A stretch of 64,000 nucleotides of DNA from Escherichia coli (GTDB lineage: Bacteria; Pseudomonadota; Gammaproteobacteria; Enterobacterales; Enterobacteriaceae): the NCBI RefSeq assembly GCF_030013205.1, contig NZ_CP122648.1; one strand, 5' to 3'. Under the pieces are notes generated by a model that ran no database searches, had not been told where the DNA came from, and saw only the letters and a program-made list of their open reading frames with translations. Positions 36,209 to 55,950 of this stretch are shown one piece after another; within the stretch, counting starts at the first letter, position 1, and every line of letters starts with the position of its first letter. Both the position numbers and the translations under genes were made by a program.

Positions 36209-36236
36209 TACGAAATTTATAAGTTGAAACTTAAAA

Positions 36237-36575: not shown

Positions 36576-36580
36576 TAACG

Positions 36581-37407: not shown

Positions 37408-37602
37408 CGGAGGCCGGGATTTTTCCCGGCTTTTTTGTGCCAGTAAAAAGCCCGCAGCCAGAAGTGTTGCGGGCTTTGTTTTTCAGGTGATTGAAGTCAA
37501 TGGGAAGAACGCGATCATCATGCGTTATTGTTTCATAAATTGCAATGATGTAGATCGTCATTTCAGTTTGTGCAATCATAATCGTTGTTTTGTTCAGGAG
37601 AT

Positions 37603-37782: not shown

Positions 37783-37821
37783 TGGTCGTGATTTTTTGGT
37801 GAAAAAAGAGAGGTGGTAAAA

Positions 37822-38400: not shown

Positions 38401-38464
38401 AAAACGTGCTGATTTCAGCCCTGCCGGATTTGGCGGGGCTTATTGATTATAACCGGGTGACATT

Positions 38465-39148: not shown

Positions 39149-39762
39149 AAATTGCTAAAAACTTAAATCTGATTATCCCTGTGCGCACTGAAAAGGGTAA
39201 TGGCTGGCTCCATGCCACGCCGATCAGCAAAGAGGTGTTTAAAGAGCATTTCTTCATCCTGAGTAAAACCTTTTCTGCCATTTTTTCTGAAGGTCTTGGT
39301 GTTGTTGCGGGTCCGCGCGTTGCCTGCCTTATGCTGGAGAAAATCTCCCGTGACTCCGGTTTATGGGATGGGGAGAAAGGCATACGTAATACGCTCATAA
39401 ACGAAATTATTCGCCTGGCAAACCTTGTTTATCCAGTGGAGGGCAAAGGCTACGACACAATCCCTCTCGATATGGCGCTGGAGCGTGAAATCGTTGATTT
39501 GGACGAAGTGGCGGGTGAACTTGTTTTTTTTACATGCGTCTCGTCGATAAATTCCCCGGAGCAGACGAAGGGGACTATGGATGCGGTGAATGGAATATGG
39601 AGCACTCAATGCTCGTCCTTGAGTCTTACGGAATGGATCGATTCATTGCCGACATTGAAGCCTGCCGTCAGTTCTGGCGCGACGGCGAACACGTCATCAG
39701 CGACATCCTCGACTACTCAGCCGGAGCCGGATTCAGAGACATCTGTGCAGATTCCGGTCTGA
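39145..39762 (+). CDS. tail-assembly-chaperone-like protein (G-like, 0 frame)
   Basis: 205-aa ORF immediately upstream of the tape-measure-like gene. It contains the slip site T TTT TTT at codons 127-129. The 0-frame tail after the slip site is S/T-rich and low-complexity. Confidence 0.5.
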   Translation: MKIAKNLNLIIPVRTEKGNGWLHATPISKEVFKEHFFILSKTFSAIFSEGLGVVAGPRVACLMLEKISRDSGLWDGEKGIRNTLINEIIRLANLVYPVEGKGYDTIPLDMALEREIVDLDEVAGELVFFTCVSSINSPEQTKGTMDAVNGIWSTQCSSLSLTEWIDSLPTLKPAVSSGATANTSSATSSTTQPEPDSETSVQIPV

Positions 39763-39827
39763 ATGTAAAAACAGCAGCTCAGTTTCGTGAGCTGCTCAAA
39801 TTCAAAAATCCCGCAGGAGTATTGTAA
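39525..39827 (+). other. putative -1 programmed frameshift site (39525-39531) plus T-like extension frame
   Basis: The T8 run at 39524-39531 gives the heptamer T TTT TTT in the 0 frame. The -1 frame is open from there to 39827 (..YMRLVDKFPGADEGDYGCGEW..FKNPAGVL). It ends in TAATG, overlapping the ATG of the tape-measure-like gene. Confidence 0.55.
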
Positions 39828-41866
39828 TGTCAGGTAATCAGATGCCAGTTCTGACGCTGGACGTTAATGAAGAACACCTCAAACGGCTTGAGGCAATTTT
39901 TGAAAAGTATCGCAACGGGCTGATGATCGGCCCTGCCGGAACGCCGATGAAAATACCGGGGCAAAGTGGGCGCAGCGTGGGGGCAGGCTTACCCGTGGCG
40001 GCAAAATCTGGTCGGACAGGACCGGATGTATCCGGGAGAGTGAGGGACGAAAAAGGGCGCTTTGTCGGCAGCGGAAAAACAGCAGATTCGTTCGTAAGCA
40101 ACTATAAAGGTCGCGGCGAAACGATGTTTGATAAGTATCTCAGCGGGCTGGGGAAAAATGCCCAACAGACGCTGAAAACTTACAAGCAGATCAATTCTAC
40201 ACTACAGACGACCACTTCAAGATTAAACAACCTGTTTAAAACAACCGTATCGTGGGGAACAAAACTCTCGGTTATGGGCGTTGCCGGACCGTTTGGCTTT
40301 GGCATGATGTCCCGTAGTGTTGTAGAGAAACAGAAAAATGCAGATGAGCTGGTGGCAACGCCAGGAGAGTTAAAGGCGGCAGAAAGCACTTATTCGCCTT
40401 ATTTTTCCGGTGTTGGCAATGTGCTCAATACACTGGCAGCAGCACAAAATGATATATCGCATCCTGCCCGCGTCGGCCTGCTTAATCTGGGGCTAAATCC
40501 TGATAAAAACGCGACTGAAAACCTGCCTGTATTCCTGAAAAAGGTTGCAGAGCTGGCAAAGGAATATCAGGGAAGTGGTCTTACCCAGAGCATGCTCAGG
40601 GGAAGAGGGCTTGGATGGGTAAATTTTGGTCTTACTAACCAGTTAGTCAAATATCAGGACAAAATACCTGAACTCAACAAAGAGTTTTCGTTACGTGCAG
40701 CGCAGAATGATTCGTTACTGACCTCTGCACATACAAGTAAATATCAGAATATTACCAGTAACCTGGAAAAAAACTGGGATCGGCTTACCAGCGGATTTCA
40801 GGGAGCAATGGCGGGGAATGAAGACGCTTTAATCAGAATGTCTGATGGTGCCACGAATGCTGCCCTGAATTTCATGAATGGTGAGAACTTTAAAAGGATT
40901 CTGACGGATGTAGAAACGGGGCTGGATAAACTTGGTAAGTACGTAAATGGCCCGGATTTTAATAACGACCTGAACAATTTTGCCGAAAACGTTGCAAAGG
41001 TTGTTAAGGCACTTAGCGGGTTTGTTGGTTTTGCGGTTGAACATCCCTGGCTTTTTGGGGCCGCAGTACTTGCTGGACCATCGAGAGTTGGTGCTGTGGC
41101 AGCCACAACGACCGGAGTTGCCGCCCGTGTTGTTGGTGGAAGTCTTCTTGGGGCTACAGCCGGAACAGTAGCTGGATTGGCTATTCCTACAAATGACACA
41201 CCTACCACCAGTGAGGAAATGAAAGGGCTGGAGGGGCGTTTCAACTTTGATTATTTTAACGAAGTGCAGGAGTGGCAAAAAAACAATCCGGGTAAGGTCT
41301 GGCCTGGAGGATTGCAGGGATTTTCAAATCAAGTAAACAGATCTGCATATTTATCCAGAGGGATCAGGAATAACAATCCCGGAAATCTTAATTTCGCAGG
41401 ACAAAAAGGGGCTACCCTGGAATCGGGGCCAAATGCCCGTTTTGCCAGCTTCCCGACGATGCTGGAAGGCATTGCCGCCTTAGATCGGCAGGTAATGCTA
41501 TACCTGAAACGCGGCAAAAATACGATTGATCAGATTATTGATATTTATGCCCCTTCATCTGATGGAAATAACACATCGTCCTATAAAAGCTATCTCTCTC
41601 AGTACACCGGATTAGGTGTTAAGGAGAAAATCGATGGTTCTAATTTTGAGGTCATGAAAAAGCTAATTCAGGGCATTATTAACCATGAAAATGGTGCTGC
41701 CGCTAAAGCTGTAAGTGTTGAAGATGTGATCCGGGCGCTGGCTATGAATCGTGGGATTGTCCCTGCAGCAGGAAACAATGATCAGAACGTTAAGTTGGAA
41801 ATTGTTCGGAACGCTGGTGCCGATTACTTCGCGCAACTAATTGGTGCTCAACGGTTCCTGGGATGA
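39827..41866 (+). CDS. tape-measure-like protein (679 aa)
   Basis: It has a long helical N-terminal part, then a Gly/Ala-rich hydrophobic segment (FGAAVLAGPSRVGAVAATTTGVAARVVGGSLLGATAGTVAGLAIP). The C-terminal globular domain carries RNNNPGNLNF. The gene follows the chaperone-like gene. Confidence 0.55.
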   Translation: MSGNQMPVLTLDVNEEHLKRLEAIFEKYRNGLMIGPAGTPMKIPGQSGRSVGAGLPVAAKSGRTGPDVSGRVRDEKGRFVGSGKTADSFVSNYKGRGETMFDKYLSGLGKNAQQTLKTYKQINSTLQTTTSRLNNLFKTTVSWGTKLSVMGVAGPFGFGMMSRSVVEKQKNADELVATPGELKAAESTYSPYFSGVGNVLNTLAAAQNDISHPARVGLLNLGLNPDKNATENLPVFLKKVAELAKEYQGSGLTQSMLRGRGLGWVNFGLTNQLVKYQDKIPELNKEFSLRAAQNDSLLTSAHTSKYQNITSNLEKNWDRLTSGFQGAMAGNEDALIRMSDGATNAALNFMNGENFKRILTDVETGLDKLGKYVNGPDFNNDLNNFAENVAKVVKALSGFVGFAVEHPWLFGAAVLAGPSRVGAVAATTTGVAARVVGGSLLGATAGTVAGLAIPTNDTPTTSEEMKGLEGRFNFDYFNEVQEWQKNNPGKVWPGGLQGFSNQVNRSAYLSRGIRNNNPGNLNFAGQKGATLESGPNARFASFPTMLEGIAALDRQVMLYLKRGKNTIDQIIDIYAPSSDGNNTSSYKSYLSQYTGLGVKEKIDGSNFEVMKKLIQGIINHENGAAAKAVSVEDVIRALAMNRGIVPAAGNNDQNVKLEIVRNAGADYFAQLIGAQRFLG

Positions 41867-41917
41867 TTTAAATACACGCGCTTTCCGGCGCATTAATACA
41901 GTCTGAGGGGAAGTGTC

Positions 41918-42445
41918 ATGTTTATGAGCAAGGCAGAATATGCCAAACACAAAGGCGTAAGCCGCCAGACAGTTTACGACTGGATCGAGAAAGGCGAAGT
42001 GATCATGTCTGGCAAAAAAATTGATGTGGAAGCGACAGAGCAGCGGAACAGCCCACCAGCACAGGGAAAAGATACCGTTTCTGAAATGTGGCCAGAGAGA
42101 ACGCTGGAAATGACGTGGGGCGAGTTCTGGAAAGCAGTTAAGGCCAGAGACGGTAAAATCCCTGCACCAGTAACGGACAATGACATACAGCAGCGTGTAC
42201 AGGATGCAGCCGGGGAACTATGCTGTGAAGTGCAATTTCTTGATGATGGTGCTATCTGCCTTGAGGATTATGCTGGGCAATATTACTTTGAGCAGTATGA
42301 TTTTCGGGAAAATGCCAGGCTGGCAATTCGTATGCTGCGTTGTGAGCTCTGCTATGTTGCAGGTGATTGTCCCGATGAGCTGGATAACTGGAGTGAAGCC
42401 GGACTAAACGCCCTGGCTGAGTGGGAAAAATCAGGCCATCAATGA
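41918..42445 (+). CDS. Nu1/TerS-like winged-HTH protein (175 aa)
   Basis: The N-terminus MSKAEYAKHKGVSRQTVYDWIEKGEV resembles lambda Nu1-type small terminase HTH domains. A repeat field lies immediately downstream. Confidence 0.5.
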   Translation: MFMSKAEYAKHKGVSRQTVYDWIEKGEVIMSGKKIDVEATEQRNSPPAQGKDTVSEMWPERTLEMTWGEFWKAVKARDGKIPAPVTDNDIQQRVQDAAGELCCEVQFLDDGAICLEDYAGQYYFEQYDFRENARLAIRMLRCELCYVAGDCPDELDNWSEAGLNALAEWEKSGHQ

Positions 42446-42450
42446 CCTCA

Positions 42451-42732
42451 AAAAGTGTCAAGTTGAGCAGCTTGCCAGGTTGACACTTTACACTCTGAAC
42501 GCGAAAAAGTGTCAACCTCGCTGTAAGCCCCGCCATTACTGGCCTTTCGCCAGATTTACCACGTCAAAAAGCCGAAAAAATCGCGAAAAGTGTCAAGTTG
42601 CCATGCTTAGAAATGCTAAGGTTTGATAAGGTTTTTCGCGAAAAAGTGTCAAGTGTGTCAACCTGCGATGTTAAGATTTGTTAAGGTCTTAAGCCGGAAA
42701 GTGTCAACCAGCCCCCTAAGATTTCCTAAGGT
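42451..42732. repeat. repeat field: at least 6 copies of AAAGTGTCAA(C/G) interleaved with TAAG..TAAGGT repeats (candidate cosB/pac-like or second origin)
   Basis: AAAGTGTCAA copies lie at 42451-62, 42479-91 (inverted), 42503-17, 42585-600, 42641-62 (double) and 42686-700. Three carry the extended form CGCGAAAAAGTGTCAA. The second family reads CTTAGAAATGCTAAGGTTTGATAAGGT, GTTAAGATTTGTTAAGGT and CCTAAGATTTCCTAAGGT. Confidence 0.75.
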
Positions 42733-42739
42733 GTAAACC

Positions 42740-42919
42740 ATGACCATCACCGAAGCCGATTTGCTGGAGATGATCCGCAGCATTGCCGGAATCAAACAAC
42801 CAGCAAGCAAAATTAACAGGTGTTCAGCGCCTGTTTCCGTTGTGCTGCAGCAGGAACGCCACCAGCATGATGATGTGAGGCCGTATCAGTGGCGGAAACC
42901 GGACAGGCCGCGACGGTGA
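42740..42919 (+). CDS. possible small ORF (59 aa)
   Basis: Unlisted ORF MTITEADLLEMIRSIAGIKQPASKINRC.. It starts just after the repeat field. No motif and only a weak RBS, so it may be a gene remnant. Confidence 0.25.
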   Translation: MTITEADLLEMIRSIAGIKQPASKINRCSAPVSVVLQQERHQHDDVRPYQWRKPDRPRR

Positions 42920-43211
42920 GCGGAACGTTCGGTAAGGCTACAGCCAAGCCAAACATTAAGCCTACGGGTAACCCTTCGAAGGGGCTTTAAAGGGGAGATG
43001 ATTATCCTTACCAGTTGATAAACAAGCAAACCTCAAATTTGAGGTTTGTATCTGCCTGACTTATTTTTGTGCTAAGTTGTTGATATATCCGACGACACAA
43101 ATTTGCGTTCTGTGGCTGGTGGTGGCGAGTTACGACCGATCATTTCCTTCCTGGCAGGTTACATCCTGCTGCTCAACTACTACGGTAGCCACTACGATTA
43201 ACTACGCGATG

Positions 43212-43240
43212 CCGATATGGGGATTCCCATATCGGTTTAT
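43212..43240 (+). terminator. intrinsic terminator
   Basis: Perfect 10-bp stem CCGATATGGG/CCCATATCGG with loop GATT, followed by TTTAT. Confidence 0.6.
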
Positions 43241-43306
43241 CCGTGATCATCCACCAGCTTGATCACGGTTAACAGGGGATGTGTAATCCCCAAGCGAGTG
43301 ATAAAT

Positions 43307-43336
43307 GTGTATAGAAATGTGTATAGAATTTATTTT
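43307..43336 (+). repeat. arm-type repeat GTGTATAGAAATGTGTATAGAATTTATTTT (partner of 29271-29307)
   Basis: See the partner feature. It lies 50 bp left of the second att core. Confidence 0.6.
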
Positions 43337-43385
43337 AGAACTCGCGAATGCGCCTTTATTACTGGCCTTGTGGCTTGTTGTATTG

Positions 43386-43403
43386 TTCCCTTCGCCCGCT
43401 CCA
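43386..43403 (+). repeat. att core copy 2: TTCCCTTCGCCCGCTCCA (18-bp direct repeat of the glyU 3' end)
   Basis: Exact match to 29138-29155. Confidence 0.9.
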
Positions 43404-43900
43404 GAATCTCCCCAGGTGGAGAAGACTAAAAAAGTCTTCTCTGTCAGCAACTTAAACAGTTACCTATTTAATTTGCTTAGGAGTTCTACCATTGTGATCC
43501 GCCCTTAGTAACTGTCACGTTAAGTTACTCGGTGAGATGACAGTATAACCTAACGTTGGCGGCAGTTGCACCTCTCACACCGCGATAGCACAACGTGAAG
43601 ATAAAGCCCATCCTGGCATTGTAATGTCATCGACAGACTGAACACACGCATTTAAGCCCGATGTGCGGCCTTGTGGCTGCGTAAACAGGTTTATGGTGAT
43701 ATTGGTCCTTGCAAACCATATGCAAGCTCTATCAGCGTTTCAGCCACGCTCCCAACGGGTACACGGTTATCCTGATAAGGTGTGATCTTTCTGACAATCT
43801 GATGAAGTCGCTACGCTCCCGCTTGTTGCTGTATCACCAACGGGGCTTTATGGTTTCTATTGTCTATAATAATCTCACAATTCCCCTGCATGAGGTTGAT

Positions 43901-44107
43901 ATGACTGTTAGCTACAAGATTACTTATGAGCATAGAGACGGTGATCAAATTAGAATGGAAGAGGTTTTATTCCATTCAGAGCATGAACCAACAAAAGATG
44001 AAATTCATGATGCAGTAAGAAAAGATACTGTGAGATTTAATTCTCCATCTAATGGAGTAACGGCTGTTTCAGGGTTTAAAGTGATTTCGGTTGTCCCTGT
44101 TCCATGA
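43901..44107 (+). CDS. hypothetical protein (68 aa)
   Basis: The internal ATG of ORF 43709..44107 is preceded by GAGG (tgaggttgatATG). Product begins MTVSYKITYEHRDGDQIRMEE... Confidence 0.45.
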   Translation: MTVSYKITYEHRDGDQIRMEEVLFHSEHEPTKDEIHDAVRKDTVRFNSPSNGVTAVSGFKVISVVPVP

Positions 44108-44140
44108 ATGGTTATAGAAGGGGCTGGAAGCCCCTAATTA

Positions 44141-44461
44141 TTACTTCTTAATATCGCCAGTGCATTGATATTCGATAGTCACAAGTGTTTGCATACAACC
44201 AGATGAAGAAGGTTGTGAACATTGAGAAGTGAATCCACCAAAAGGCTCGGCTCCTGAATATCCCCAAGCGGCACAACGCGCTTTGGCTGCATTCATGCCT
44301 TGTTGTGGATCTACAACAGGACTTTCAAACATACCGTAAGAATAACTCATCCTAACTGTGCCGTCTGATTTGCTTCCACCAGTTGGAACGAGTTGTTTTT
44401 TTGTTGCACATCCAGAAATAATCAATGTTGAAGCAAGTAACAGCATTAAACTTTTGCGCAT
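44141..44461 (-). CDS. small lipoprotein (YecR-like by recollection)
   Basis: 106 aa. The signal peptide and lipobox read MRKSLMLLLASTLIISGC. The mature part contains four Cys. Confidence 0.65.
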   Translation of the reverse strand: MRKSLMLLLASTLIISGCATKKQLVPTGGSKSDGTVRMSYSYGMFESPVVDPQQGMNAAKARCAAWGYSGAEPFGGFTSQCSQPSSSGCMQTLVTIEYQCTGDIKK

Positions 44462-44605
44462 GTAAATAATCCCAAGAGATAATGGTTATGTATTGATTTA
44501 AAGCGTTTTTAGATTAATGCATTAACTTAGCAAAATTAAGTCTTTTCTGATTGTTTGCAGAGTAAAAATGAGTTGCTTTCGAAATTATTTCGGATGTTTA
44601 TTGTA

Positions 44606-44773
44606 TTACGGTTTTTCAAACCGTCTAACTATTGTCGCTATTGAATGGGCAATAATAGCAAGAGGATTCATTTCGTCATTGGAGGCAACAAAAAGTCGGT
44701 AACTGATAGCTACAACGAATGAAACAATAACGAGAAAGCGGATAGTGCTAAGATGTTTTGAAGATAAATGCAT
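44606..44773 (-). CDS. possible 55-aa hydrophobic peptide
   Basis: Unlisted ORF MHLSSKHLSTIRFLVIVSFVVAISYRLFVASNDEMNPLAIIAHSIATIVRRFEKP. No clear RBS. Confidence 0.25.
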   Translation of the reverse strand: MHLSSKHLSTIRFLVIVSFVVAISYRLFVASNDEMNPLAIIAHSIATIVRRFEKP

Positions 44774-45113
44774 AACGCCCCCTAAATGAATGTGAGGGGG
44801 ATTAAATCATGCAAATTTGTTGTGTGCAATACTGGTAATTTATCCTAATAGTCTACTATTCACCTCAATCTACGTCAACCAATATTTGATGTAGATTTGA
44901 TTTTCTTTTAAAAACAATATGTTGCAATTTGTTGGGTTTTGGGGTTAGGTTGTTTTTTGGACGTTTCCATCAAGTGTAAAGATACGTTTAGCCTTCATAG
45001 TGAGTTCAGTTACTGTCTTTTTCTCTGAAATCGGCGCATACGTGATCATCGCTTAACGAGAAGATCAGCGCCGTCAGGTCCATGCAGCGACAATTCTGAA
45101 ATATCAGGAGGCA

Positions 45114-45665
45114 TTACGCTTCCTGCTCTTTCTTGATACGTTGCACCGTCTGTGTGCTGACACTGAAATCTTTTGCTACGCTCCGAATTGATCCACCATT
45201 CGCGAGAGCGGCAACAATTCCCGCTCGATCAATTGCTTTTCCATTACCACGTTTTGCTATACGCCCAGCTGCCTTAGCTGCGGCGATCCCTTCACGTTGA
45301 CGCTCAAGCATCATTTCACGTTCCATTTGTGCCACTGCTGCAAGCACTGTGAGCATCATATTCCCTGCGGGAGAGTTCTTCCCTGTCTTAAAGTCTTCTT
45401 TATGGAAATGCACAGACACGCCGCGCTCTGTTAATTGCTCAACCGTTGCCAGAAGGTCGGCTGTATTACGGCAAAGGCGATCAATACTGTGAACATGCAA
45501 AACATCACCTTCCCGCACATAGTTCATCATTGCCTCAAACTGTGGGCGCTGGGTATTCTTGCCTGACGCTTTATCTTCAAAGACTTTATCAAGAGCTACT
45601 CCAGCTAATTGACGGTCTGTGTTTTGTTGCACAGTCGATACCCTAATGTATCCAATATTAGCCAT
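45114..45665 (-). CDS. serine recombinase (resolvase/invertase family)
   Basis: 183 aa. The N-terminus MANIGYIRVSTVQQNTDRQ contains the catalytic Ser. It also has the DRLCRN motif and a C-terminal HTH (GGSIRSVAKDFSVSTQTVQRI). Confidence 0.9.
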   Translation of the reverse strand: MANIGYIRVSTVQQNTDRQLAGVALDKVFEDKASGKNTQRPQFEAMMNYVREGDVLHVHSIDRLCRNTADLLATVEQLTERGVSVHFHKEDFKTGKNSPAGNMMLTVLAAVAQMEREMMLERQREGIAAAKAAGRIAKRGNGKAIDRAGIVAALANGGSIRSVAKDFSVSTQTVQRIKKEQEA

Positions 45666-45680
45666 TTTCTTTATTCCTTC

Positions 45681-45798
45681 TGTGTTGATTTGTGTGTAGT
45701 GATTATTGATCGTGTTGATTAGGTGTGTAAAGGACTTTTTTCACTACGAAATTCGAAGGTTTTTAGTGTGGTGATTTAGCCTGCTTTATCACTACACG
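45681..45798. promoter_or_regulatory. res-like nested imperfect inverted repeats upstream of the recombinase gene
   Basis: TGTGTAGTGAT (45693-703) pairs with ATCACTACACG (45788-98). TCACTACGAA (45741-50) pairs with TAGTGTGGTGA (45765-75). There are also direct repeats TGTGTTGATT / CGTGTTGATT. Confidence 0.45.
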
Positions 45799-46166
45799 TC
45801 TTGCATGAGAATCATGTAGTTACGTTTTGGTAAAATTAGCAAGCTATTAAATAGTGTGTTTATTTTGAAAAAATAATTTTTTGTTGCATTAAAGAAAACT
45901 TGTTCGACAAATAATAGATTGATTTTTAATCAATAATTTCTGATAGTGCTCTGTAAGCCGCATTACACAAGGCTTTGCGAAAGTGATGTAAAAGTGAAGA
46001 AAGTAAGAATTGCACTTTTAAGCTACTTTTCATTGAATTTTTAGTATGGAATTACACAGGGATTAATCATCAATTACATTGAATTTAAGCCTGTTTTAGA
46101 TGTTTAATTTTGGTAGCAAGAAACACTTTTAGAAGATCATTGCACAGATGTTATGTGATAAATGGA

Positions 46167-46325
46167 TGTAACGATGGGTTACATTCAGCTATCTGAAATA
46201 CTCTCTGTAAGAAATTTGGTAGTAACGATTCGTTACATAGACTAATTATTGAATGTAACGATATTACACATCGGTAGTAACGATACGTTACATCGGCAGA
46301 TGATTGGTTGTAACGAAAGGTTACA
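46167..46325. repeat. array of five phased 17-bp palindromes (T/A)GTAACGA-N3-(G/C)GTTACA
   Basis: Boxes: TGTAACGATGGGTTACA (46167-83), AGTAACGATTCGTTACA (46221-37), TGTAACGATATTACACA (46254-70), AGTAACGATACGTTACA (46276-92) and TGTAACGAAAGGTTACA (46309-25). Centre spacings are 54, 33, 22 and 33 bp. The T-type and A-type boxes alternate. Confidence 0.8.
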
Positions 46326-46414
46326 CAATAAGACTAACATCTATAATACTAATAATAAAACTAACTATTAAACTATATAATATAATTCTTTTTTATCTTT
46401 ATAAGAATAATTAT

Positions 46415-46775
46415 AGGGATACCCGTTAGGGAGTCTAACGACTATCCCTTAATCTATTGGCATTCGCCAGAACCTTGCACAAGTTAGAGTGTTAGTCGTT
46501 AGACTGCTTGTCATAACACATAGTTTTTGTTTGTTGATGTTAGTTAGTAGATCTATGTTCGCTTTCCGCTCACAACGAATATGTAATCTACTATGTGCAA
46601 ATAGCCTACGGCTTGCGTAAGGCTAAATAGTCTTGCGCTGTGCGCAGAACGATAATTAACTAACTACCATCTAACGATCATCAATCATCTAAAATAAATT
46701 TCTTGTGCAATGTTCTTGCGAATGCAATTAGGGTAGCGTTACCCCTTTGGGGATGCTAACGCATAACTATAGATC
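46415..46775. repeat. pair of ~75-bp imperfect inverted repeats flanking a ~200-bp segment
   Basis: The left arm (46415-46492) ends in ..TTGGCATTCGCCAGAACCTTGCACAAG. The right arm (46700-46775) has a reverse complement ending in ..ATTGCATTCGCAAGAACATTGCACAAG. Each arm also contains an internal GTTAG/CTAAC-type hairpin. Confidence 0.7.
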
Positions 46776-47206
46776 AACCATCAAACAGACAAAAAAGAAA
46801 AATATGGTTTAAAGATGTTAGGTAGTAGATGAGTTTCTACCGCTTAAATCAAGCCGTAGGCGAGCTAAACGTATATAAGGTAGGGAAACACTTAGCGGTA
46901 ATAGATTAGCTCGTTATAGAGATTCTGAGGAGCTTTACAGGTATTTTATAAGGTGTCTGAAATTAGATTTTATCTACCATCACCTTTTCATATACCTAAC
47001 AAATACAAAATAAGCACCTTAAATAAGCCTCTGGCGAGCTAAACGGTCATTACATAAGGGAATGTATTGTTTTTATCAAAACCTCGTTAGAACGCGTTTT
47101 AGAGCGTTATTAGACAATAATGAAGAATAGCACTACACAGGAGAGCACGAATTGCTAAGACAAATTATAAATTGCTGAAATAGATCGGATTTTTTGCAAA
47201 ATGGTA

Positions 47207-47235
47207 TTGACAAATGTCTCTTTCTGTGCAATAAT
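47207..47235 (+). promoter_or_regulatory. sigma70 promoter P1 (TTGACA-17-AATAAT with TGc extended -10)
   Basis: TTGACA at 47207-12, a 17-nt spacer ending in TGC, and AATAAT at 47230-35. It reads toward the 47358 operon. Confidence 0.65.
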
Positions 47236-47287
47236 AGGTATTAGAGGGACAGAAAACATTCTTATCCTCTAAGTAATTAAACCAATG

Positions 47288-47331
47288 CACCGCACTTTGA
47301 GCCGTCAGGCTGCAAGGTGTCTTTTTCTTTT
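47288..47331 (+). terminator. leader terminator/attenuator between P1 and the first gene
   Basis: CACCGCA..GCCgtcaGGC..TGCAAGGTG composite stem followed by TCTTTTTCTTTT. It lies 26 nt before the ATG at 47358. Confidence 0.5.
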
Positions 47332-47357
47332 AACCAAATAGAATAGGAGGTTAATTA

Positions 47358-47540
47358 ATGAAATATTTCACTCCACAGGATGTAGTAGAAGCCTGGAAAC
47401 GTGGTGAGATCAATCGTTTTAAAGTAAGGATGAACAGGAACACAGCGCGACGCTGTGGTTATCCAGAGCGTGAAAAATGTTTTGACGATGCACTAAAAAT
47501 TATTGATGAACTGCGTAAGGCAGAAGTAGAGAAAGAATAA
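47358..47540 (+). CDS. hypothetical protein (60 aa)
   Basis: Strong RBS (AGGAGGttaattaATG). No motif. Confidence 0.6.
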   Translation: MKYFTPQDVVEAWKRGEINRFKVRMNRNTARRCGYPEREKCFDDALKIIDELRKAEVEKE

Positions 47541-47561
47541 TAACAGGAGAAGGAGAAAACT

Positions 47562-47729
47562 ATGAGCGAAACTAAGAAACCAATTCCGCGCACTTACCTA
47601 CACGTTGACCCTGAAATCTTCAAGGTTTTATTTGCTGAAGCCAAGAAAAGGCAAATTATGGTCAGTGATTTGATGTTAGAAATCATTACTGAAGCAGCAG
47701 AGAACATCAAACAAAAAAAGGGTAAGTGA
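47562..47729 (+). CDS. ribbon-helix-helix (CopG-like) protein, 55 aa
   Basis: Unlisted ORF MSETKKPIPRTYLHVDPEIFKVLFAEAKKRQIMVSDLMLEIITEAAENIKQKKGK with RBS GGAGAAGGAG. It shows a beta-strand then helix-helix pattern. Confidence 0.6.
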   Translation: MSETKKPIPRTYLHVDPEIFKVLFAEAKKRQIMVSDLMLEIITEAAENIKQKKGK

Positions 47730-47782
47730 TCCTCATTCACTTTAGTAGCGCATTAAGCGTGATTTATAAGGAGATAATTCTA

Positions 47783-48463
47783 ATGTCTAAAATTAAATTG
47801 ATTCGTGAAAAATACCAGTATGTTGATAAACAAACAGGAGAAATTAAAGACAGAACTTTGAATATACCACACTACTTTTGTGAGATTGAATTCATCTACT
47901 CCTCAAATATTGAGGATGGAAAAGCGAAGTTTAGTGCAGAAATGCAAAAATTATATTGCTATGTTTCAGATTGGGAGAAATCAGGGGGGATATGTTTTGA
48001 AACACAAACGAAGTTAAGTAAAGTTTGTGGCTGTAGCCGTAAGACAGTTAATGAATTGATTGGTCTTATGATTAAAATCGGTCTTTTAGAAGAGGTCGGA
48101 GAACGAATCCCAAAACGTCCTTTAAAATTACGTGCGCTACTTCTCACAGATGCACATATTACTCCCCCTGGAGAATCATCACTACCTGATCCTTCTGAGA
48201 AAGAAGACGAATCTAATGAAATATTGAATGTTTCCGAAATCATCCTTGAAGAAGAAACACAAGAGCCAGAGTTCCCTGAGCGGCCCGAAATTTTTACTTG
48301 GCTTCTTTCCCTTGATAAGAAGAAACCACCGCACGAAGAAACAGAAGATTTTGTAAAACGTGCATTAGATTCAAAGAATATCTATCTTGAGAAACAGGCT
48401 TTTCACGATCTGATAATATCTCTAAGAGAAAAAAGTGAAATATACGATTCAATACCATTCTAA
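47783..48463 (+). CDS. winged-HTH protein (226 aa), candidate replication initiator/regulator with acidic C-terminal half
   Basis: The internal ATG of ORF 47726..48463 follows AAGGAG. The HTH-like segment is TQTKLSKVCGCSRKTVNELIGLMIKIGLLEE. Confidence 0.5.
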   Translation: MSKIKLIREKYQYVDKQTGEIKDRTLNIPHYFCEIEFIYSSNIEDGKAKFSAEMQKLYCYVSDWEKSGGICFETQTKLSKVCGCSRKTVNELIGLMIKIGLLEEVGERIPKRPLKLRALLLTDAHITPPGESSLPDPSEKEDESNEILNVSEIILEEETQEPEFPERPEIFTWLLSLDKKKPPHEETEDFVKRALDSKNIYLEKQAFHDLIISLREKSEIYDSIPF

Positions 48464-48472
48464 GGAGAATAA

Positions 48473-48742
48473 ATGACTTATAACATCACTATAGGAAACA
48501 AAACTATTGAAATAACTGAAAGCGGATACAACATTTTAAAAGCTATTTTGGAAATAGAGTTCTCACCGCCGACAGTGGTTAGCTTTTGTAGTTTAGGCGG
48601 CTACAGCGCACAACACGTGAATCATTGGTTAAACCATTTTACATCGTTCGGTGTGCTGGATTATGAAGGGATTAACAGCACTACATTTCGTCTTTTGAAA
48701 TTAAACAAAGATTTTGAATTGTTTATCACAAACAATCAATAA
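48473..48742 (+). CDS. hypothetical protein (89 aa), possible wHTH
   Basis: RBS AAGGAG upstream. No firm motif. Confidence 0.5.
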   Translation: MTYNITIGNKTIEITESGYNILKAILEIEFSPPTVVSFCSLGGYSAQHVNHWLNHFTSFGVLDYEGINSTTFRLLKLNKDFELFITNNQ

Positions 48743-48838
48743 CAACAGATCGGGCAATACATATGGCAAATGCATTTATGGCGATATTCATTGTAACAAT
48801 GGTATCAAGTTTTTATAATCCACATAAAAAGAGGGAAA

Positions 48839-49222
48839 ATGGGAAGAAAGAAAAAGAACAACTTAAAACGTATTGAAAAAAACAGTAACTTCAATTCAAC
48901 AAGACAACGTCCACCGACACACACCAATAACGAAATTCCAGGGGAAGAGATAATATTTATTCTTGAAACAGAATCCCCTGAATTAAGCGATGAAGAATTA
49001 GAAATAATCCAGTCAATGCCAGGCGTTTACTTTCGCCCAAGAACAAGAAAACAAACTATCATTTCTGATGGCACTCTGAAACGTTGGCAGCTTTTAGGGT
49101 TTAGCTCCTATCATCATTTTTTGGGATTTAACGCTTTCAATAATTGTGTAGGTGGTGCATCGGAAGTCGATCTGATGGCTCATTTAGAAGATACATTAGC
49201 TTCTAACAAACGTTCTAACTAA
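48839..49222 (+). CDS. hypothetical basic/acidic protein (127 aa)
   Basis: RBS GAGGGAAA upstream. The N-terminus is Lys/Arg-rich. Confidence 0.5.
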   Translation: MGRKKKNNLKRIEKNSNFNSTRQRPPTHTNNEIPGEEIIFILETESPELSDEELEIIQSMPGVYFRPRTRKQTIISDGTLKRWQLLGFSSYHHFLGFNAFNNCVGGASEVDLMAHLEDTLASNKRSN

Positions 49223-49237
49223 TAAAATGATGGGAGT

Positions 49238-49510
49238 ATGTATAAGCGCCCAATGAAAATAATCGAAAAAGGAAAAATAATGATTAACTATCAACTATTA
49301 GAAACAACATTTTTTAAAGAAGCAAAACAACTTGCAGAAGTGTTTATTTCACTGGCTGAACGAGCAAAAGAAGAAAATGATTTTGCCTTGCTTGATGATG
49401 TGCTGGATGACATTGCAACCTATCGTATACCGCTACAGATTGCACTAAACAAGGCTAAACAGATTCAGCAAGAGATGGAATCAGCAGATCAAGGAGAGAT
49501 TGCACAATGA
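49238..49510 (+). CDS. hypothetical helical protein (start uncertain: 49238, 49253 or 49280)
   Basis: ORF in the track. Its stop overlaps the next start (ATGA). Confidence 0.45.
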   Translation: MYKRPMKIIEKGKIMINYQLLETTFFKEAKQLAEVFISLAERAKEENDFALLDDVLDDIATYRIPLQIALNKAKQIQQEMESADQGEIAQ

Positions 49511-49815
49511 CAGACAACATTCTGGAAGTTATGGACACTCTTTCGGATCGGATGATCGCCCTACAGACACGTATCAATCAAGCCTATTCAGATTTATGCG
49601 ATTACACGCTCTCTCAATGCGTTAGTAGCTTAATGAAGGTGAATGTAAGCCTTGACGATTTCATCTCTCTGGTGAGCGATTTAGAGCTATCTAAGGACGA
49701 TGTCAGGCTGTGTACTCAAACCATCACAGACACCGCCAGCACGTTAAAGGCTGCAAGTGAAGAGATTCAGCAATTAGTAGATGATTTAGCAAAAAGTGCT
49801 ATTTTCTCCAAATGA
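49507..49815 (+). CDS. hypothetical helical protein (102 aa)
   Basis: Translationally coupled to the previous ORF. Confidence 0.5.
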   Translation: MTDNILEVMDTLSDRMIALQTRINQAYSDLCDYTLSQCVSSLMKVNVSLDDFISLVSDLELSKDDVRLCTQTITDTASTLKAASEEIQQLVDDLAKSAIFSK

Positions 49816-49828
49816 TAATGAAAATCAT

Positions 49829-49857
49829 TTGCATTTATAACGATTTCATTATATAAT
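49829..49857 (+). promoter_or_regulatory. near-consensus sigma70 promoter P2 (TTGCAT-17-TATAAT)
   Basis: TTGCAT at 49829-34, a 17-nt spacer, and TATAAT at 49852-57. The initial transcribed sequence ATTAGGGGTAGATAAAAA resembles that of P1 (ATTAGAGGGACAGAAAA). Confidence 0.7.
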
Positions 49858-50087
49858 GATATTAGGGGTAGATAAAAAGGTTTTGACTGGTGTTAATCCT
49901 TCTACTGTCATAAATCCCTGCATATGGAAGGTGATAGCCTCAAGGGTTGAGTGGCATTAACCTCTAACAAATATTACCTTCCATCTCTCAAGAAGTTTTA
50001 GAATAATCATAACTCCCTCTTTGATTGTTGATTGTTTCTACGTTGTGTTGATGAATGTTGTTAGGCATTGTGCTTAATTTTGATAAA

Positions 50088-50130
50088 AGCGGGTAGGTGT
50101 TATCTCCTTGCCCTTCCCGCTCTTATTTTT
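50088..50130 (+). terminator. candidate intrinsic terminator ~265 nt downstream of P2
   Basis: AGCGGG (50088-93) pairs with CCCGCT (50116-21), with an inner AGG/CCT pairing. It is followed by CTTATTTTT. Confidence 0.45.
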
Positions 50131-50559
50131 CATCTATGCTTATCCTAAAGCTCCTTATTTTGTCCGAAAACATTAAAGAGCCTTACACTGATAGTTATAT
50201 TTTATAACTATTTACTAACATCATTAAACTCTTATTTAATGACAGAAGTTAGTAACAGAATAATCTATTAAGTTGTTGTCAAAAAACTATCATCTGCATA
50301 GCGTTAGCCGCAAGTAGAGAGAGTTTAGTTAAGAATGGTGCAATAAACTTTGGAAATATTGATAGCAAAACTAGTTTTATAGAATGCGGATCTATAATCT
50401 TTGGTTGTAAAAACGATTTTCTGAAACGGTAGATTACTGTTGGTGTAGTTAATCCTTATTAAAAATTTAATCTGTGAGTAGATTGGAATAGTGATTCCTT
50501 AAAATCTGACTGGTGCATCCACACCATGAAAGATAGCAGTTGGCCACCGCGCCCCGAAT

Positions 50560-50615
50560 AGATATTCCTGATTGATTCCGCATGTTTTCCTAAGAGCATG
50601 TTTTCAGGAATATCT
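50560..50615 (+). repeat. perfect 12-bp inverted repeat with 32-nt spacer
   Basis: AGATATTCCTGA (50560-71) and TCAGGAATATCT (50604-15). Confidence 0.8.
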
Positions 50616-50719
50616 GTTCACCCTTTAAACCTATCTTTAAGCATGTTTAATAAGCATTCTTAGAGATACGTTTAAAACCTCCTCAAGGTTTTACTTATCG
50701 CTGTGTATTGCCCGACACG

Positions 50720-50779
50720 TTAATAAATCCCCCTCGCTATTGTCAGATTGAACCTCTTATAGCCTGGGGGATTTATTAA
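50720..50779 (+). repeat. perfect 14-bp inverted repeat with 32-nt spacer
   Basis: TTAATAAATCCCCC (50720-33) and GGGGGATTTATTAA (50766-79). It lies 29 nt before the ATG at 50808. Confidence 0.8.
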
Positions 50780-50807
50780 ATTCCAGCATAATGGAATCGT
50801 TATATAA

Positions 50808-51017
50808 ATGAAACAAGAAATTATCCTGAAATATGGCAATGAAAAGTTAACACTAACTGAAGATGTGTTGAATGCTACAGCCTACGCGCTTGGCATCACT
50901 CCCACAGAATTAAAGAAACAGTGTGAACGTCTTTATAAGGCTGAAAGCAATAAACCATCTCACCAAGATTTGATTAATGCTAAAGCTCAACAAATCAAAC
51001 AATCTAAGGAAAAATAA
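50808..51017 (+). CDS. hypothetical protein (69 aa)
   Basis: First ORF after the long leader. Its stop overlaps the next start (TAATG). Confidence 0.55.
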   Translation: MKQEIILKYGNEKLTLTEDVLNATAYALGITPTELKKQCERLYKAESNKPSHQDLINAKAQQIKQSKEK

Positions 51018-51391
51018 TGGCTATTTTAAAATTAAGCGATGTTTTCCCACATCGTAAAAGCATCACTGACGTAGTGAGCTATGCAACCGACCCTTACGCG
51101 GCTGTAGAAAGCAAAAAATTTGCAGCACTTGCACAAGATGTAACGTGCGGCGACCTCATTGATTCATCCGGCGCTAAATATGTTAGCGGCGCTGATGTTC
51201 TTGTCGTTGTGTCTGACTTCGTAACTGCTGATTCAAATAAAACAGTTAACGTGCTTCGTGCTAATGCCGGACTCGTTTGCATCAAAGCTGATGCCCTGAA
51301 TGCCGAAGGCGCTGTAAAAGAAGCTGCTATTGCAGCTCTCGCTGCTAAAGGCTTCCAGCTTGAAGGCTTCCACTCTGTTTTCACATCTTAA
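51017..51391 (+). CDS. head-decoration-like protein (124 aa)
   Basis: Its size, Ala/Val-rich beta-type composition and position immediately upstream of the capsid-like gene resemble lambda gpD-type decoration proteins. Confidence 0.4.
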   Translation: MAILKLSDVFPHRKSITDVVSYATDPYAAVESKKFAALAQDVTCGDLIDSSGAKYVSGADVLVVVSDFVTADSNKTVNVLRANAGLVCIKADALNAEGAVKEAAIAALAAKGFQLEGFHSVFTS

Positions 51392-51407
51392 GAAGGAATA
51401 AATAATA

Positions 51408-52436
51408 ATGATTATCGGAAATGAAGTGGTTGATCTTGCTCCACTGTTCGAATTAAACGACTCACGCAATTACCTACTGTCTACTCTGGATTTTACTGAT
51501 CCTGTGCCTGTAGAAAGTCACAAAGTGGCTGTTTCCCAGCTTATCGAGAGCAATGAATCTCTGTTCAACCATCCTACAAGCCGTTTTAGCTCTGAGCATA
51601 ACGTTACTAAGCGTGAGAACGGGGAAGAATGGCTGATTGAAATCCCTTACTTCCTGCGTGAAGACCTGATCAAACCGCAGGACGTGCAAGGCAAACGCAA
51701 AGCCGGAAGCTCTATTGAAGAAACACTGCCGGATCTGTATGCGGAATATATCGCTACACACAATGTTGCATTCCAGCGCACTAAAGAAAGCATCCTCGCG
51801 GCTTCTCTGTTCTCTGGCAAGACACATACCCCGAAAACTGACGATGTTCTGATCGACTACAGCACTCTGTTCGGTGTGTCTCCAATGACTGCAACCGTTG
51901 ACGCATCCAGCACCAACACAATGACCGTATTCAAGCAATTTGATCAGATGCATACGGATATGATTGCTAAGGCACAAAGCCAGGCTGCAACCATTGAGCG
52001 TGTTGTTGTGTTCTGTAAACCTGCGGCATTCAACGCTATTCGTTACAGCGTTGGCATGGTTAATGCGTTCCAGTATGCAAGCCCTGTAGACGATGCAAAC
52101 GTGGTGTTTAATGTGCGTTCTCTGCTGCCTGGTGTAACTACTTTCACCATTCCAGGAACTAACATTGACCTGATCAAAGTGACTGATCCGCTGCTGCTGG
52201 CACATATGACCGCTGACGCTGTAGCTATTCCTAAACTTGCTAAGGGGGCAGGTGTTTACCAAGCTATTTTTGGTGCGCCTTCCAGTTCATTCGATCTGCT
52301 GTCTCAAGGCGCTAAAGAGTATTACAGCTATGCTTTCGAATCGAATCGCGGCGACGCAGTGCACGTAGTGACCGAGAATAGCTCGCTTGTGGTTAACCAC
52401 GGTGTTGGCTTCTCTGTGCAGATCACAGTAGCGTAA
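51408..52436 (+). CDS. major capsid protein-like (gpE-like size class, 342 aa)
   Basis: 342 aa, which is my recollection of the lambda gpE length class. It follows the decoration-like gene, has a strong RBS (AAGGAAtaaataataATG) and codon usage suggesting high expression. The family is not verifiable here. Confidence 0.45.
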   Translation: MIIGNEVVDLAPLFELNDSRNYLLSTLDFTDPVPVESHKVAVSQLIESNESLFNHPTSRFSSEHNVTKRENGEEWLIEIPYFLREDLIKPQDVQGKRKAGSSIEETLPDLYAEYIATHNVAFQRTKESILAASLFSGKTHTPKTDDVLIDYSTLFGVSPMTATVDASSTNTMTVFKQFDQMHTDMIAKAQSQAATIERVVVFCKPAAFNAIRYSVGMVNAFQYASPVDDANVVFNVRSLLPGVTTFTIPGTNIDLIKVTDPLLLAHMTADAVAIPKLAKGAGVYQAIFGAPSSSFDLLSQGAKEYYSYAFESNRGDAVHVVTENSSLVVNHGVGFSVQITVA

Positions 52437-52590
52437 AAAGTGTTAAAGACGTTCCCCTACGTCTGGAAATAATCGGGGCAATAAGGGTAAGGGATAATCA
52501 TATAAGCAAAATATGCGCTGTCTCTTGCACTTTTTGTTTTTCTACTGTCTACAAACCCAAATAAAAATATATATATGTGAGAGAAAACCA

Positions 52591-54646: not shown

Positions 54647-54721
54647 ATCTCCAGACAACCAATATCACTTAAATAAGTGATAGTCTTAATACTAGTTTTT
54701 AGACTAGTCATTGGAGAGCAG

Positions 54722-55087
54722 ATGATTGATGTCTTAGGACCGGAGAAACGCAGACGGCGTACTACACAGGAAAAGATCGCTATTGTTCAGCAGAGTTTTG
54801 AACCGGGAATGACGGTCTCCCTTGTTGCCCGGCAACACGGTGTGGCAGCCAGCCAGTTATTTCTCTGGCGCAAGCAATACCAGGAGGGAAGTCTTACTGC
54901 TGTGGCCGCAGGAGAGCAGGTCGTTCCTGCCTCTGAACTTGCTGCTGCCATGAAGCAGATTAAAGAACTCCAGCGCCTGCTCGGCAAAAAAACGATGGAA
55001 AATGAACTCCTTAAAGAAGCCGTTGAATACGGGCGTGCAAAAAAGTGGATAGCGCACGCGCCCTTATTGCCCGGGGATGGGGAGTAA
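54722..55087 (+). CDS. insC: IS2 transposase OrfA
   Basis: [41 protein letters not shown].., recognised as IS2 InsC. Confidence 0.95.
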
Positions 55088-55950
55088 GCTTAGTCAGCCG
55101 TTGTCTCCGGGTGTCGCGTGCGCAGTTGCACGTCATTCTCAGACGAACCGATGACTGGAAAGATGGTCGCCGCAGCCGTCACTCAGATGATACGGATGTG
55201 CTTCTCCGTATACACCATGTTATCGGAGAGCTGCCCACGTATGGTTATCGTCGGGTATGGGCGCTGCTTCGCAGACAGGCCGAACTTGATGGTATGCCTG
55301 CGATCAATGCCAAACGTGTTTACCGGATCATGCGCCAGAATGCGCTGTTGCTTGAGCGAAAAACCGCTGTACCGCCATCGAAACGGGCACATACTGGCAA
55401 AGTGGCCGTGAAAGAAAGCAATCAACGATGGTGCTCTGACGGGTTCGAGTTCCGCTGTGATAACGGAGAAAAACTGCGAGTCACGTTCGCGCTGGACTGC
55501 TGTGACCGTGAGGCACTGCACTGGGCAGTCACTACGGGCGGCTTCGACAGTGAAACAGTACAGGACGTAATGCTGGGAGCGGTGGAACGCCGCTTCGGCA
55601 ACGAGCTTCCGGCGTCTCCAGTAGAGTGGCTGACGGATAATGGTTCATGCTACCGGGCTAATGAAACACGGCAGTTTGCCCGGATGTTGGGGCTTGAACC
55701 GAAGAACACGGCGGTGCGGAGTCCGGAGAGTAACGGCATAGCAGAGAGCTTCGTGAAAACGATAAAGCGTGACTACATCAGTATCATGCCTAAACCAGAC
55801 GGGTTAACGGCAGCAAAGAACCTTGCAGAGGCGTTCGAGCATTATAACGAATGGCATCCGCATAGTGCACTGGGTTATCGCTCGCCACGGGAATATCTGC
55901 GGCAGCAGGCCAGTAATGGGTTAAGTGATAACAGGTGTCTGGAAATATAG
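55045..55950 (+). CDS. insD: IS2 transposase OrfB (expressed with OrfA by -1 frameshift)
   Basis: 301-aa ORF, an integrase-core DDE protein recognised as IS2 InsD. Confidence 0.95.

Follow-up and report, generated by a model that had tools for sequence, protein, structure and literature searches.

The window analysed here, a 64,000-nt stretch of Escherichia coli DNA (contig NZ_CP122648.1), contains an integrative element of ~13 kb, spanning 45.1-58.0 kb, that appears to represent an undescribed family of phage satellites with decoration-like, capsid, tape-measure-like and Dit-like genes of its own; a literature search found no paper that describes the element or contains its sequences. Two rightward operons lie within it, an early operon behind the promoter P1 and a late operon, beginning with capsid genes, behind the promoter P2. 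Both are preceded by a predicted sigma-70 promoter, a related G-rich box (the G-box) at the predicted start of the transcript, and terminators, and the late operon is separated from the early one by ~1 kb of non-coding DNA that specifies conserved RNA structures. The control region comprises the following features, in which ORF denotes an open reading frame and SD a Shine-Dalgarno sequence.

47207-47235, + strand: P1 promoter; -35 TTGACA (47207-12), 17-nt spacer, TG at 47227-28 (TGc), -10 AATAAT (47230-35)
47240-47257, + strand: P1 G-box, ATTAGAGGGACAGAAAAC, starting 4 nt after the -10
47241-47272, + strand: 5'-terminal stem-loop of the P1 transcript, UUAGAGGGA ... UAUCCUCUAA; -10.6 kcal/mol, z = -3.3
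47292-47331, + strand: predicted intrinsic terminator T1; hairpin 47292-47320, -16.4 kcal/mol, then CUUUUUCUUUU; ends 26 nt before ORF1
47358-49815, + strand: P1 (early) operon of seven small ORFs
49829-49857, + strand: P2 promoter; TTGCAT (49829-34), 17 nt, TATAAT (49852-57); begins 13 nt past the ORF7 stop
49861-49879, + strand: P2 G-box, ATTAGGGGTAGATAAAAAG, starting 3 nt after the -10; contributes the 5' strand to the helix that closes RNA domain 1
49861-50131, + strand: P2 RNA of ~270 nt; domain 1 (49863-49920), domain 2 (49924-49984), a U/G-rich linker and T2
50088-50131, + strand: predicted intrinsic terminator T2; hairpin 50088-50121, -15.4 kcal/mol, then CUUAUUUUUC (tail also given as CUUAUUUUU)
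50132-50510, + strand: conserved stretch, not significantly folded (z = -0.98 on the + strand, -2.57 on the - strand), with no ORFs
50512-25, + strand: hairpin H-0, GGUG-CAUCCA-CACC
50536-50, + strand: hairpin H-0', GCAGU-UGGCC-ACCGC
50561-50614, + strand: H-a, a long hairpin whose apical motif, UCCUAAGAGC, is conserved
50624-50676, + strand: H-b, a long hairpin of 21 pairs
50720-50779, + strand: terminator-like hairpin H-c/T3, conserved in its loop AACCUCUUA and lying 29 nt before the capsid operon; -25.7 kcal/mol, z = -5.7
50780-50797, + strand: SD-masking hairpin; it sequesters the SD-like UGGAA ahead of the first capsid-operon ORF, whose start codon is at 50808
50808-52436, + strand: first genes of the capsid (late) operon: ORFs of 69 aa and 124 aa (the latter decoration-like), then the major capsid protein

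P1, P2, the shared box, T1 and T2 had all been described in an earlier reading of this DNA (the sequence-only reading), and each was recovered in place by re-reading the sequence, by scans and by folding. A simple terminator scan passed over T1 on account of its bulge and T2 on account of its large loop. The hallmark of an intrinsic terminator, a stable GC-containing hairpin with a U-tract directly behind it, is found in the predicted T1 and T2 of the window and in T3 of relatives.

Those relatives are widespread. Element matches occur in ~700 of 5426 complete E. coli genomes (roughly 13%), of which enterotoxigenic (ETEC), Shiga toxin-producing and O104:H4 strains are examples, and the P2 non-coding region was found in 281; positions 46000-52500 of the window are 100% identical to several porcine ETEC chromosomes. 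A scan of species-representative genomes with the tape-measure-like protein yielded E. coli only, and the relatives in Klebsiella and Enterobacter were reached via ORF5. Seven lineages were compared: 1A and 1B (the window, L003-L017, L028 and L032), 2 (L018-L030), 3a (L034-L037) and 3b (L038) from E. coli, and one each from Klebsiella pneumoniae (L040, L041) and Enterobacter hormaechei (L042, L043). All have in common the plan of an early operon, a long non-coding gap and a capsid operon. The layout of promoter, promoter-proximal element and one or more terminators before the genes, first proposed from the window, is likewise kept throughout the seven lineages and three genera.

With regard to the promoters, P1 matches 11 of the 12 hexamer positions, has an extended -10, and was the top promoter-like site between 44 and 58 kb in a promoter scan; P2 was read by the same scan as TTTGCA-18-TATAAT (10/12). 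The -35, the spacing and the -10 are kept in 13 promoter classes from the seven lineages although the spacers diverge. In all lineages and at both operons, TTGACA or TTGACT is followed by a 17-nt spacer (18 nt at P1 of lineage 3a), usually TGn, and a -10 hexamer. Between T2 and the capsid operon of the window, no second sigma-70-like promoter was found at a match of at least 9/12. A perfect TATAAT at 50393-50398, with neither a -35 nor a TG, lies within a TTATAGA-N7-TCTATAA palindrome in the unstructured conserved part of the leader and could be an activator-dependent promoter. In lineage 2, two CAAC-N6-GTTG palindromes flank the P2 leader in most loci checked (L023 at 7735-7748 and 8026-8039; L019, L021, L024, L026 and L027), one just upstream of the -35 and the other between the terminator and the capsid operon.

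Aligned without gaps, the boxes behind P1 and P2 agree at 13 of 18 positions. The probability of such a similarity is ~4e-4 when judged by random pairs and 1e-3 when both partners are drawn from downstream of -10-like hexamers; for the score with gaps it is 5e-3. In 12 of the 13 promoter classes, the first G of a GGG run falls 8-13 nt after the -10, as compared with a background of 5% (binomial P ~5e-15, the classes not being fully independent). TTA(A)G(A)GG is present in all seven P1 versions, and the P2 versions read TTAGGGG, TGTAGGGG, TATGGGG, TTATGGGG, ATAAGGG and TCTGGG, the P1 and P2 boxes being alike within each lineage. The P2 regions of lineages 1 and 2 are very different, and their best local alignment covers exactly the -10 plus the box. 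The sequence-only reading would have been refuted by a box that related elements do not conserve, among other conditions, and on that point it is not refuted. The possibility that the box is a signature of a helper-phage promoter class was considered and is not supported, since in 80 kb of phAPEC8, a phage of the putative helper type discussed below, GGG occupies the box position in just 2 of 19 strong promoter-like sites. The box thus belongs to the element family.

The sequence-only reading had likened this arrangement to lambdoid late-gene control by Q at qut sites. On such a scheme, a Q-like protein from the helper or the satellite would attach to the promoter DNA, engage a polymerase that sigma-70 holds paused at the box, and escort it past T1 and T2. 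Promoter, short terminated RNA and late genes do follow one another in the order of PR'-6S-tR', and TATTAG/GATATT lies directly after the -10, in this window only. However, TATTAG is a -10-like hexamer without the key final T, the initial transcribed regions of the 13 promoter classes share no conserved pause hexamer of this kind, and the P1 and P2 spacers, in which a Q-binding element would be expected, are unrelated and share no sequence. As had been noted from the outset, no Q gene is recognisable by Pfam, PHROGs or NCBIfam, and the P2 box lies in an RNA helix (see below). The Q/qut mechanism is therefore very improbable and is not supported, nor is a lambdoid helper: the structural genes and two early genes point to virulent myophages of the Stephanstirmvirinae, which are not lambdoid.

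The P1 leader folds better than shuffled sequence (z = -4.0), and its 5'-terminal stem-loop is retained in relatives with altered stems; wherever a P1 leader has T1, the box takes part in such a stem-loop. The succession of P1, box, hairpin, T1 and SD sequence is conserved in 28 E. coli loci (20 distinct sequences) of lineages 1 and 2. Klebsiella has compensatory changes on both sides of two T1 stem pairs, and in Enterobacter the place of T1 is taken by another hairpin that has its own U-tract. No alternative antiterminator pairing for T1 was seen by eye, and no repressor gene is recognisable beside P1.

The transcript from P2 to T2 is the least variable segment measured. Among 18 lineage-1 copies, its nucleotide diversity (pi) is 0.020 over 49861-50131, which compares with third-codon-position values of 0.096 for ORF7, 0.167 for ORF1 and 0.205 for ORF5. 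Its fold is significant on the + strand (z = -3.6) as compared with the - strand (z = -1.4). Lineage 3a, too diverged to be aligned by blastn, shares the two-domain topology of the window when folded, although its stems differ in sequence, and in both the window and lineage 3a a terminator follows the two domains. Domain 1 is closed by a helix between the box and a C-rich segment ~55 nt downstream (UAGGGGU/AUCCCUG in the window, GUAGGG/CCUAC in L036 of lineage 3a) and bears an apical hairpin conserved in both. The long stem of domain 2 has 13 bp in the window and 11 bp in the L036 fold, with nearly all positions different (AUGGAAGGUGAUA/UAUUACCUUCCAU versus AAAGCGGGGCAG/CUGCCUCGCUUU). Because RNAalifold on a cross-lineage alignment of the P2 RNA was degraded by misalignment, the common fold rests on separate folds of the individual sequences. 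These observations agree with the discrete RNA of ~265 nt that the sequence-only reading had envisaged, and they answer its call for covariation of the box in homologues: the pairing partner changes along with the box between two lineages, and the P2 box is thus the 5' strand of an RNA helix. A covariance-model search of 45600-50900 with Rfam 15 (including T-box and C4) gave no match apart from two at chance level (E = 0.54 and 4.9). Antisense regulation of the ORF7 start or the ORF5 SD sequence by the P2 RNA was rejected, the best duplex having p ~0.05 and a target that is not conserved. The non-coding region is also bracketed by a 17-nt inverted repeat (49836-52 and 50788-804), with an invertase gene nearby; an invertible segment was considered and discarded, as the right arm is not conserved.

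The box might instead act as DNA, and the element genes that bear on this and on the candidate regulators are as follows.

47358-47540, + strand: ORF1, a core protein in all lineages and the first gene after P1
+ strand: ORF2, ribbon-helix-helix-like as judged by eye
47783-48463, + strand: ORF3, a winged helix-turn-helix (wHTH) replication-initiator-like protein
48839-49222, + strand: ORF5, a core protein in all lineages

If the G-box were an operator over the transcription start, a core protein such as ORF1 or ORF5 would repress both promoters and the terminators would only tighten this control. A role at the level of the DNA or the 5'-end would suit lineage 3, where P1 keeps its box with neither T1 nor a clear 5' hairpin, and the resemblance of the P1 and P2 boxes within a lineage is as expected of a shared operator. 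ORF1 and ORF5 occur in all lineages, have basic segments, and have no phage homologues that could be found. Yet the box is single-copy and non-palindromic, a consistent second site was not found, profile scans detected no DNA-binding domain in ORF1 or ORF5, and the co-change of the P2 box with its partner is the behaviour of an RNA helix. The sole hint as to the function of ORF1, moreover, is that it matches, very weakly, a family of RNA-binding regulators in NCBIfam (E = 0.017, 15 bits against a cut-off of 100, in near-identical members only), which was not accepted as an identification. We regard an operator function as unlikely.

ORF5 yielded a predicted model with a confidence (predicted local distance difference test) of 70, comprising a small folded core and a conserved, basic, low-confidence N-terminus, MGRKKKNNLKR. 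It was compared on this account with lambda N, a small protein with an arginine-rich N-terminal arm, to which it shows no homology. As for RNA sites at which known factors act, the ops element GGCGGTAGnnTG has no match with two or fewer mismatches in 47236-47357 or 49858-50807. In a search for boxA and boxB, the sole boxA-like sequence, CGCTCTTA (50118-25), proved to be the tail of T2 together with its 3' arm, and relatives have variants of it (CGCTATTA, CGCTTTTA). The two boxes are not followed by a shared hairpin.

Beyond T2, the sequence-only reading had predicted a further ~680 nt of structured leader. This is true of the final 250 nt before the capsid operon, which are strongly structured (z = -8.4), and not of 50132-50510, which is not significantly folded; diversity over 50132-50560 is low all the same (pi 0.036, the same 18 copies), and no credible small ORF was found in 49816-50807. 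Across types and lineages, H-0 and H-0' retain their loops and differ in their stems. H-a has a perfect long stem in three types and in lineage 3a; its stems in the L005/L006 types and in lineage 3a are wholly unrelated yet paired, with U·G wobbles on the + strand, and the loop motif UCCUAAG(A/C)GC is retained; the Klebsiella equivalent carries CCUCCUAAGAGC. Covariation in the last part of the leader was assessed in nine sequences of three types. H-b is 100% paired in all nine, with three pairs that vary on both sides and three that vary by wobble only; H-c covaries (AAAUCCCCC/GGGGGAUUU versus AAAGCCCC/GGGGCUUU); and two of the four pairs of the SD-masking hairpin vary on both sides between types. 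For H-b, H-c and the SD hairpin together, 99.7% of cells are paired, and seven pairs change on both sides; once the partners are shifted by 1-3 columns as a control, there are no such pairs. Because the non-Watson-Crick pairs are G·U on the + strand (A·C on the other), the structure acts as + strand RNA, not as a protein-binding palindrome. In relatives, T3 reaches -23 kcal/mol and has a clear U-tract, UUUUUAUUU. Every lineage has a P2 leader of 350-950 nt with two or three terminator-like hairpins, the last of which lies 35-85 nt before the first capsid-operon ORF. The leader of lineage 2 is much shorter and different; the distance from its single terminator to the start codon, ~60 nt, would hardly accommodate a further promoter.

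An arrangement of this kind raises the possibility that the long P2 leader is a cis-acting sensor RNA, similar to a riboswitch or T-box, in which the loops CAUCCA, UCCUAAGAGC and AACCUCUUA would bind a helper-derived protein, RNA or tRNA, thereby disabling H-c/T3 and opening the SD hairpin. The stems covary while the loops are invariant across types and lineages, and the terminator and SD-masking hairpin directly downstream are like an expression platform. The loops of H-a (UAAGAG, 50590-50597) and H-c (CUCUUA, 50751-50759) are complementary over 6 nt and could form a kissing interaction, and phAPEC8 is annotated with 11 tRNA genes, of which one is flagged as a pseudo-tRNA. Against this, no Rfam family matches, T-box included, and no alternative antiterminator helix was identified; moreover, the AACCUCUUA loop is not retained in lineage 3a and lineage 2 has its much shorter leader, so that we consider a self-contained sensor distinctly unlikely. 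It is also conceivable, if rather doubtful, that the whole ~950-nt P2 transcript is a helper-sensing RNA device, in which the two-domain RNA and the same three hairpin loops would bind a Stephanstirmvirinae product, or a core protein induced by infection, to bring about read-through.

The nature of the putative helper is suggested by the remaining genes of the element.

45114-45665, - strand: serine invertase gene, at the left end of the element
~1.7 kb of non-coding DNA holding five TGTAACGAnnnGTTACA iterons and an AT-rich stretch
51408-52436, + strand: major capsid protein (Phage_cap_E)
56822-58042, - strand: tyrosine integrase, at the right end of the element

The capsid operon also encodes tape-measure-like and Dit-like proteins. 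Identity to the proteins of phAPEC8-like myophages is 25% for the capsid and 53% for the Dit-like protein, and the gene order (decoration, capsid, then tape measure and gp103) is that of phAPEC8. ORF2 and the first part of ORF3 (47550-48175) share 96-99.6% DNA identity with genes of the phages inny and muut, which indicates recent exchange between helper-type phages and the element. The phage copy (L031, 2501-3125) joins the N-terminal DNA-binding domain of ORF3 to another C-terminus, and it has no P1-like leader in front. Searches with Pfam, PHROGs and NCBIfam found no match to a portal, protease or terminase among the element ORFs. By homology, the element would be a satellite-like parasite of Stephanstirmvirinae related to phAPEC8, inny and muut. 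The structural genes themselves are variable: the capsid gene in the same position is just 19% identical in close relatives (L003-L006), and the tape-measure-like gene of L005 just 27%. From these comparisons, whole structural modules are swapped and the non-coding leader is retained. An insertion sequence at 54677-55950, with two overlapping transposase ORFs, splits the tape-measure-like from the Dit-like gene in the window and is not present in ETEC1748 or other relatives.

Collectively, these observations suggest that the two rightward operons are controlled after initiation, and that their expression is released by processive antitermination, leader remodelling or both upon helper infection. 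We put this forward tentatively, with somewhat less than even confidence. A strong sigma-70 promoter would fire at each operon, and the transcript would start with the G-rich box, (A/G)N0-2GGG, which at P2 and in most P1 versions is the 5' strand of a transcript-initial helix; polymerase would then meet intrinsic terminators ahead of the genes. P1 would give rise to a leader RNA of ~90 nt ending at T1, and P2 to the conserved two-domain RNA of ~270 nt ending at T2. The capsid operon would be reached only past the covarying multi-hairpin leader and the second terminator, H-c/T3, and its ribosome-binding site would have to be freed from the small SD hairpin. Helper infection would bring about read-through by way of a core protein of the satellite (ORF1 or ORF5) or a product of the helper, the two sources being equally possible. 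As the terminators stand in series, a processive mechanism fits better than separate attenuators. We infer the activity of the promoters, the efficiency of the terminators, and the existence and identity of the releasing factor from this anatomy and its conservation. The antitermination-controlled operons of the sequence-only reading thus persist as a plausible and conserved gating by termination, and their Q-type mechanism does not.

Several observations weigh against such gating. Promoter-like hexamers occur at chance level in this AT-rich DNA (one site of at least 11/12 against 0.39 expected; eight of at least 10/12 against 7.75), and the case for the promoters therefore rests on their position and conservation. 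Lineage 3 has no T1: its P1 leader is ~45 nt with no clear 5' hairpin and retains TTAGGG(G), and the box and terminator are thus not an obligatory pair at P1. T2 doubles as the natural end of the P1 operon, so that a gating role may be absent there. The U-tract of H-c in the window is weak, and the leader covariation draws on just 2-4 independent sequence types. With regard to factors, Pfam, PHROGs and NCBIfam reveal no homologue of Q or N and no other antiterminator among the element ORFs, and the ORF5 model has no structural match in PDB. The helper, finally, is assigned from homology only.

Some of these points would be accommodated if there were no dedicated factor at all. T1, T2 and T3 would then be leaky attenuators or insulators that hold expression from a single integrated copy very low, the P2-T2 transcript either a small RNA in its own right or the 3' terminus of the early operon, and induction a matter of gene dosage after helper-triggered excision and replication from the iteron origin. 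T2 is indeed the first terminator reached by P1-operon transcripts, T1 is dispensable in lineage 3, and an antiterminator was not recognised. An origin-like array is present together with the Rep-like ORF3: five palindromic TGTAACGAnnnGTTACA copies followed by the AT-rich stretch (46165-46420), a block that is likely the replication origin and that varies among relatives, as does the N-terminal wHTH part of ORF3. Four relatives (L034-L037) are whole contigs of 13.2-13.7 kb with permuted starts, in which a superinfection-immunity-like gene takes the place of the integrase; these are probably circular forms, which suggests an episomal or packaged state, and such permuted contigs, of 13.2-13.8 kb in all, suggest a multicopy circular form. 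Gene dosage leaves unexplained the G-box at both transcript starts in all lineages, the ~300 nt of covarying hairpins with invariant loops before the last terminator, and the constraint on the P2 RNA, which exceeds that on coding sequence. We judge it improbable.

Other features of the non-coding DNA lie upstream of P1. Positions 46050-46150 and 46450-46650 are invariant among relatives, and inverted repeats of 30 nt (46454-83/46702-31) and smaller (46432-49/46488-505) lie in this region; the two repeats may mark a further structured RNA or else a site on the DNA, for example pac. Two 38-nt direct repeats (46851-46888 and 47025-47062, with GGCGAGCTAAACG in common) lie ~180 and 355 nt upstream of P1 and could be binding sites for a regulator. 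Outside the element, and in tandem with it, a P4-like island occupies 29082-45000 at tRNA-Gly(CCC) and adjoins ETT2-like type III secretion genes. The island carries an int-alpA RNA (30579-30646), a primase, and PerC and ProQ/FinO-like genes.

It is largely unknown how a satellite of virulent phages keeps its genes silent and then activates them in the first minutes after infection. The paradigms of satellite control are the Stl repressors of phage-inducible chromosomal islands (PICIs) and the RNA immunity of P4, and strong promoters whose transcripts are stopped by terminators in structured leaders offer an alternative that is conserved and readily put to the test. Should the gating prove real, it would identify a new antitermination or leader-sensing system, and provide a handle on a satellite with its own capsid and tail-length genes that is directed against phages of the kind used in therapy. 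If the helper-sensing reading were true, a family of Enterobacteriaceae satellites would detect its virulent myophage helper at the level of termination and not via a repressor. In terms of lifestyle, there is a likeness to the PLE satellites of Vibrio cholerae, parasites of the virulent myophage ICP1, which are similar in island size, in possessing an integrase, a replication initiator and, within a large stretch of non-coding DNA, iterons, in consisting mostly of small genes of no known role, and in their apparent dependence on a large virulent myophage. No homology was established with PLE, however, and the present element has its own capsid, decoration-like, tape-measure-like and Dit-like genes and resides in Enterobacteriaceae; we know of no description of terminator-gated leaders as a feature of PLE. 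Capsid-forming PICIs differ in that the element has no match to a portal, protease or terminase.

Among RNA-based controls, P4 immunity (a constitutive PLE promoter, early termination and a CI RNA processed out of the leader) and the c4 antisense RNA of the phages P1 and P7 are alike in that no protein repressor is recognised beside the main promoter of the satellite and a constitutive-looking promoter would give early-ending transcripts with structured leaders. The element differs in having no Rfam C4 match, an unrelated gene set and another type of helper, and a scan of the P1-operon mRNA for complementarity of the CI/c4 type gave at best 50053-73 against 49502-22 (p ~0.05 versus shuffles), which is lost in relatives. 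The put sites of HK022 and nut sites of lambda, RNA elements near the promoter that render polymerase resistant to terminators, likewise place a related element in the RNA just downstream of two promoters and before terminators, which at P2 lies within two stem-loop domains. There is no sequence or Rfam similarity to them, the shared part is just ~18 nt, and the P1 RNA that follows it is different. Riboswitch and T-box leaders share the long 5' leader, covarying stems, invariant loops, and terminator-like and SD-sequestering hairpins before the first gene, and differ in that no known family matches and no alternative antiterminator fold was identified.

A last comparison is with lambda late control. 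In PR'-6S-tR'-Q, as here, the last early gene ends just upstream of a strong promoter, which is followed by a short terminated RNA (194 nt for lambda 6S RNA, ~270 nt in the element) and a structural operon beyond the terminator. Q-binding elements are allele-specific. The element differs in having no Q match, no recognisable Q-binding element, no conserved sigma-dependent pause element and no lambdoid relatives among phages. Its terminated RNA is itself a conserved two-domain structure, and ~680 nt of further leader and a second terminator follow it. The control logic of the element thus parallels that of the lambda late genes and is built from parts unrelated to lambda's.

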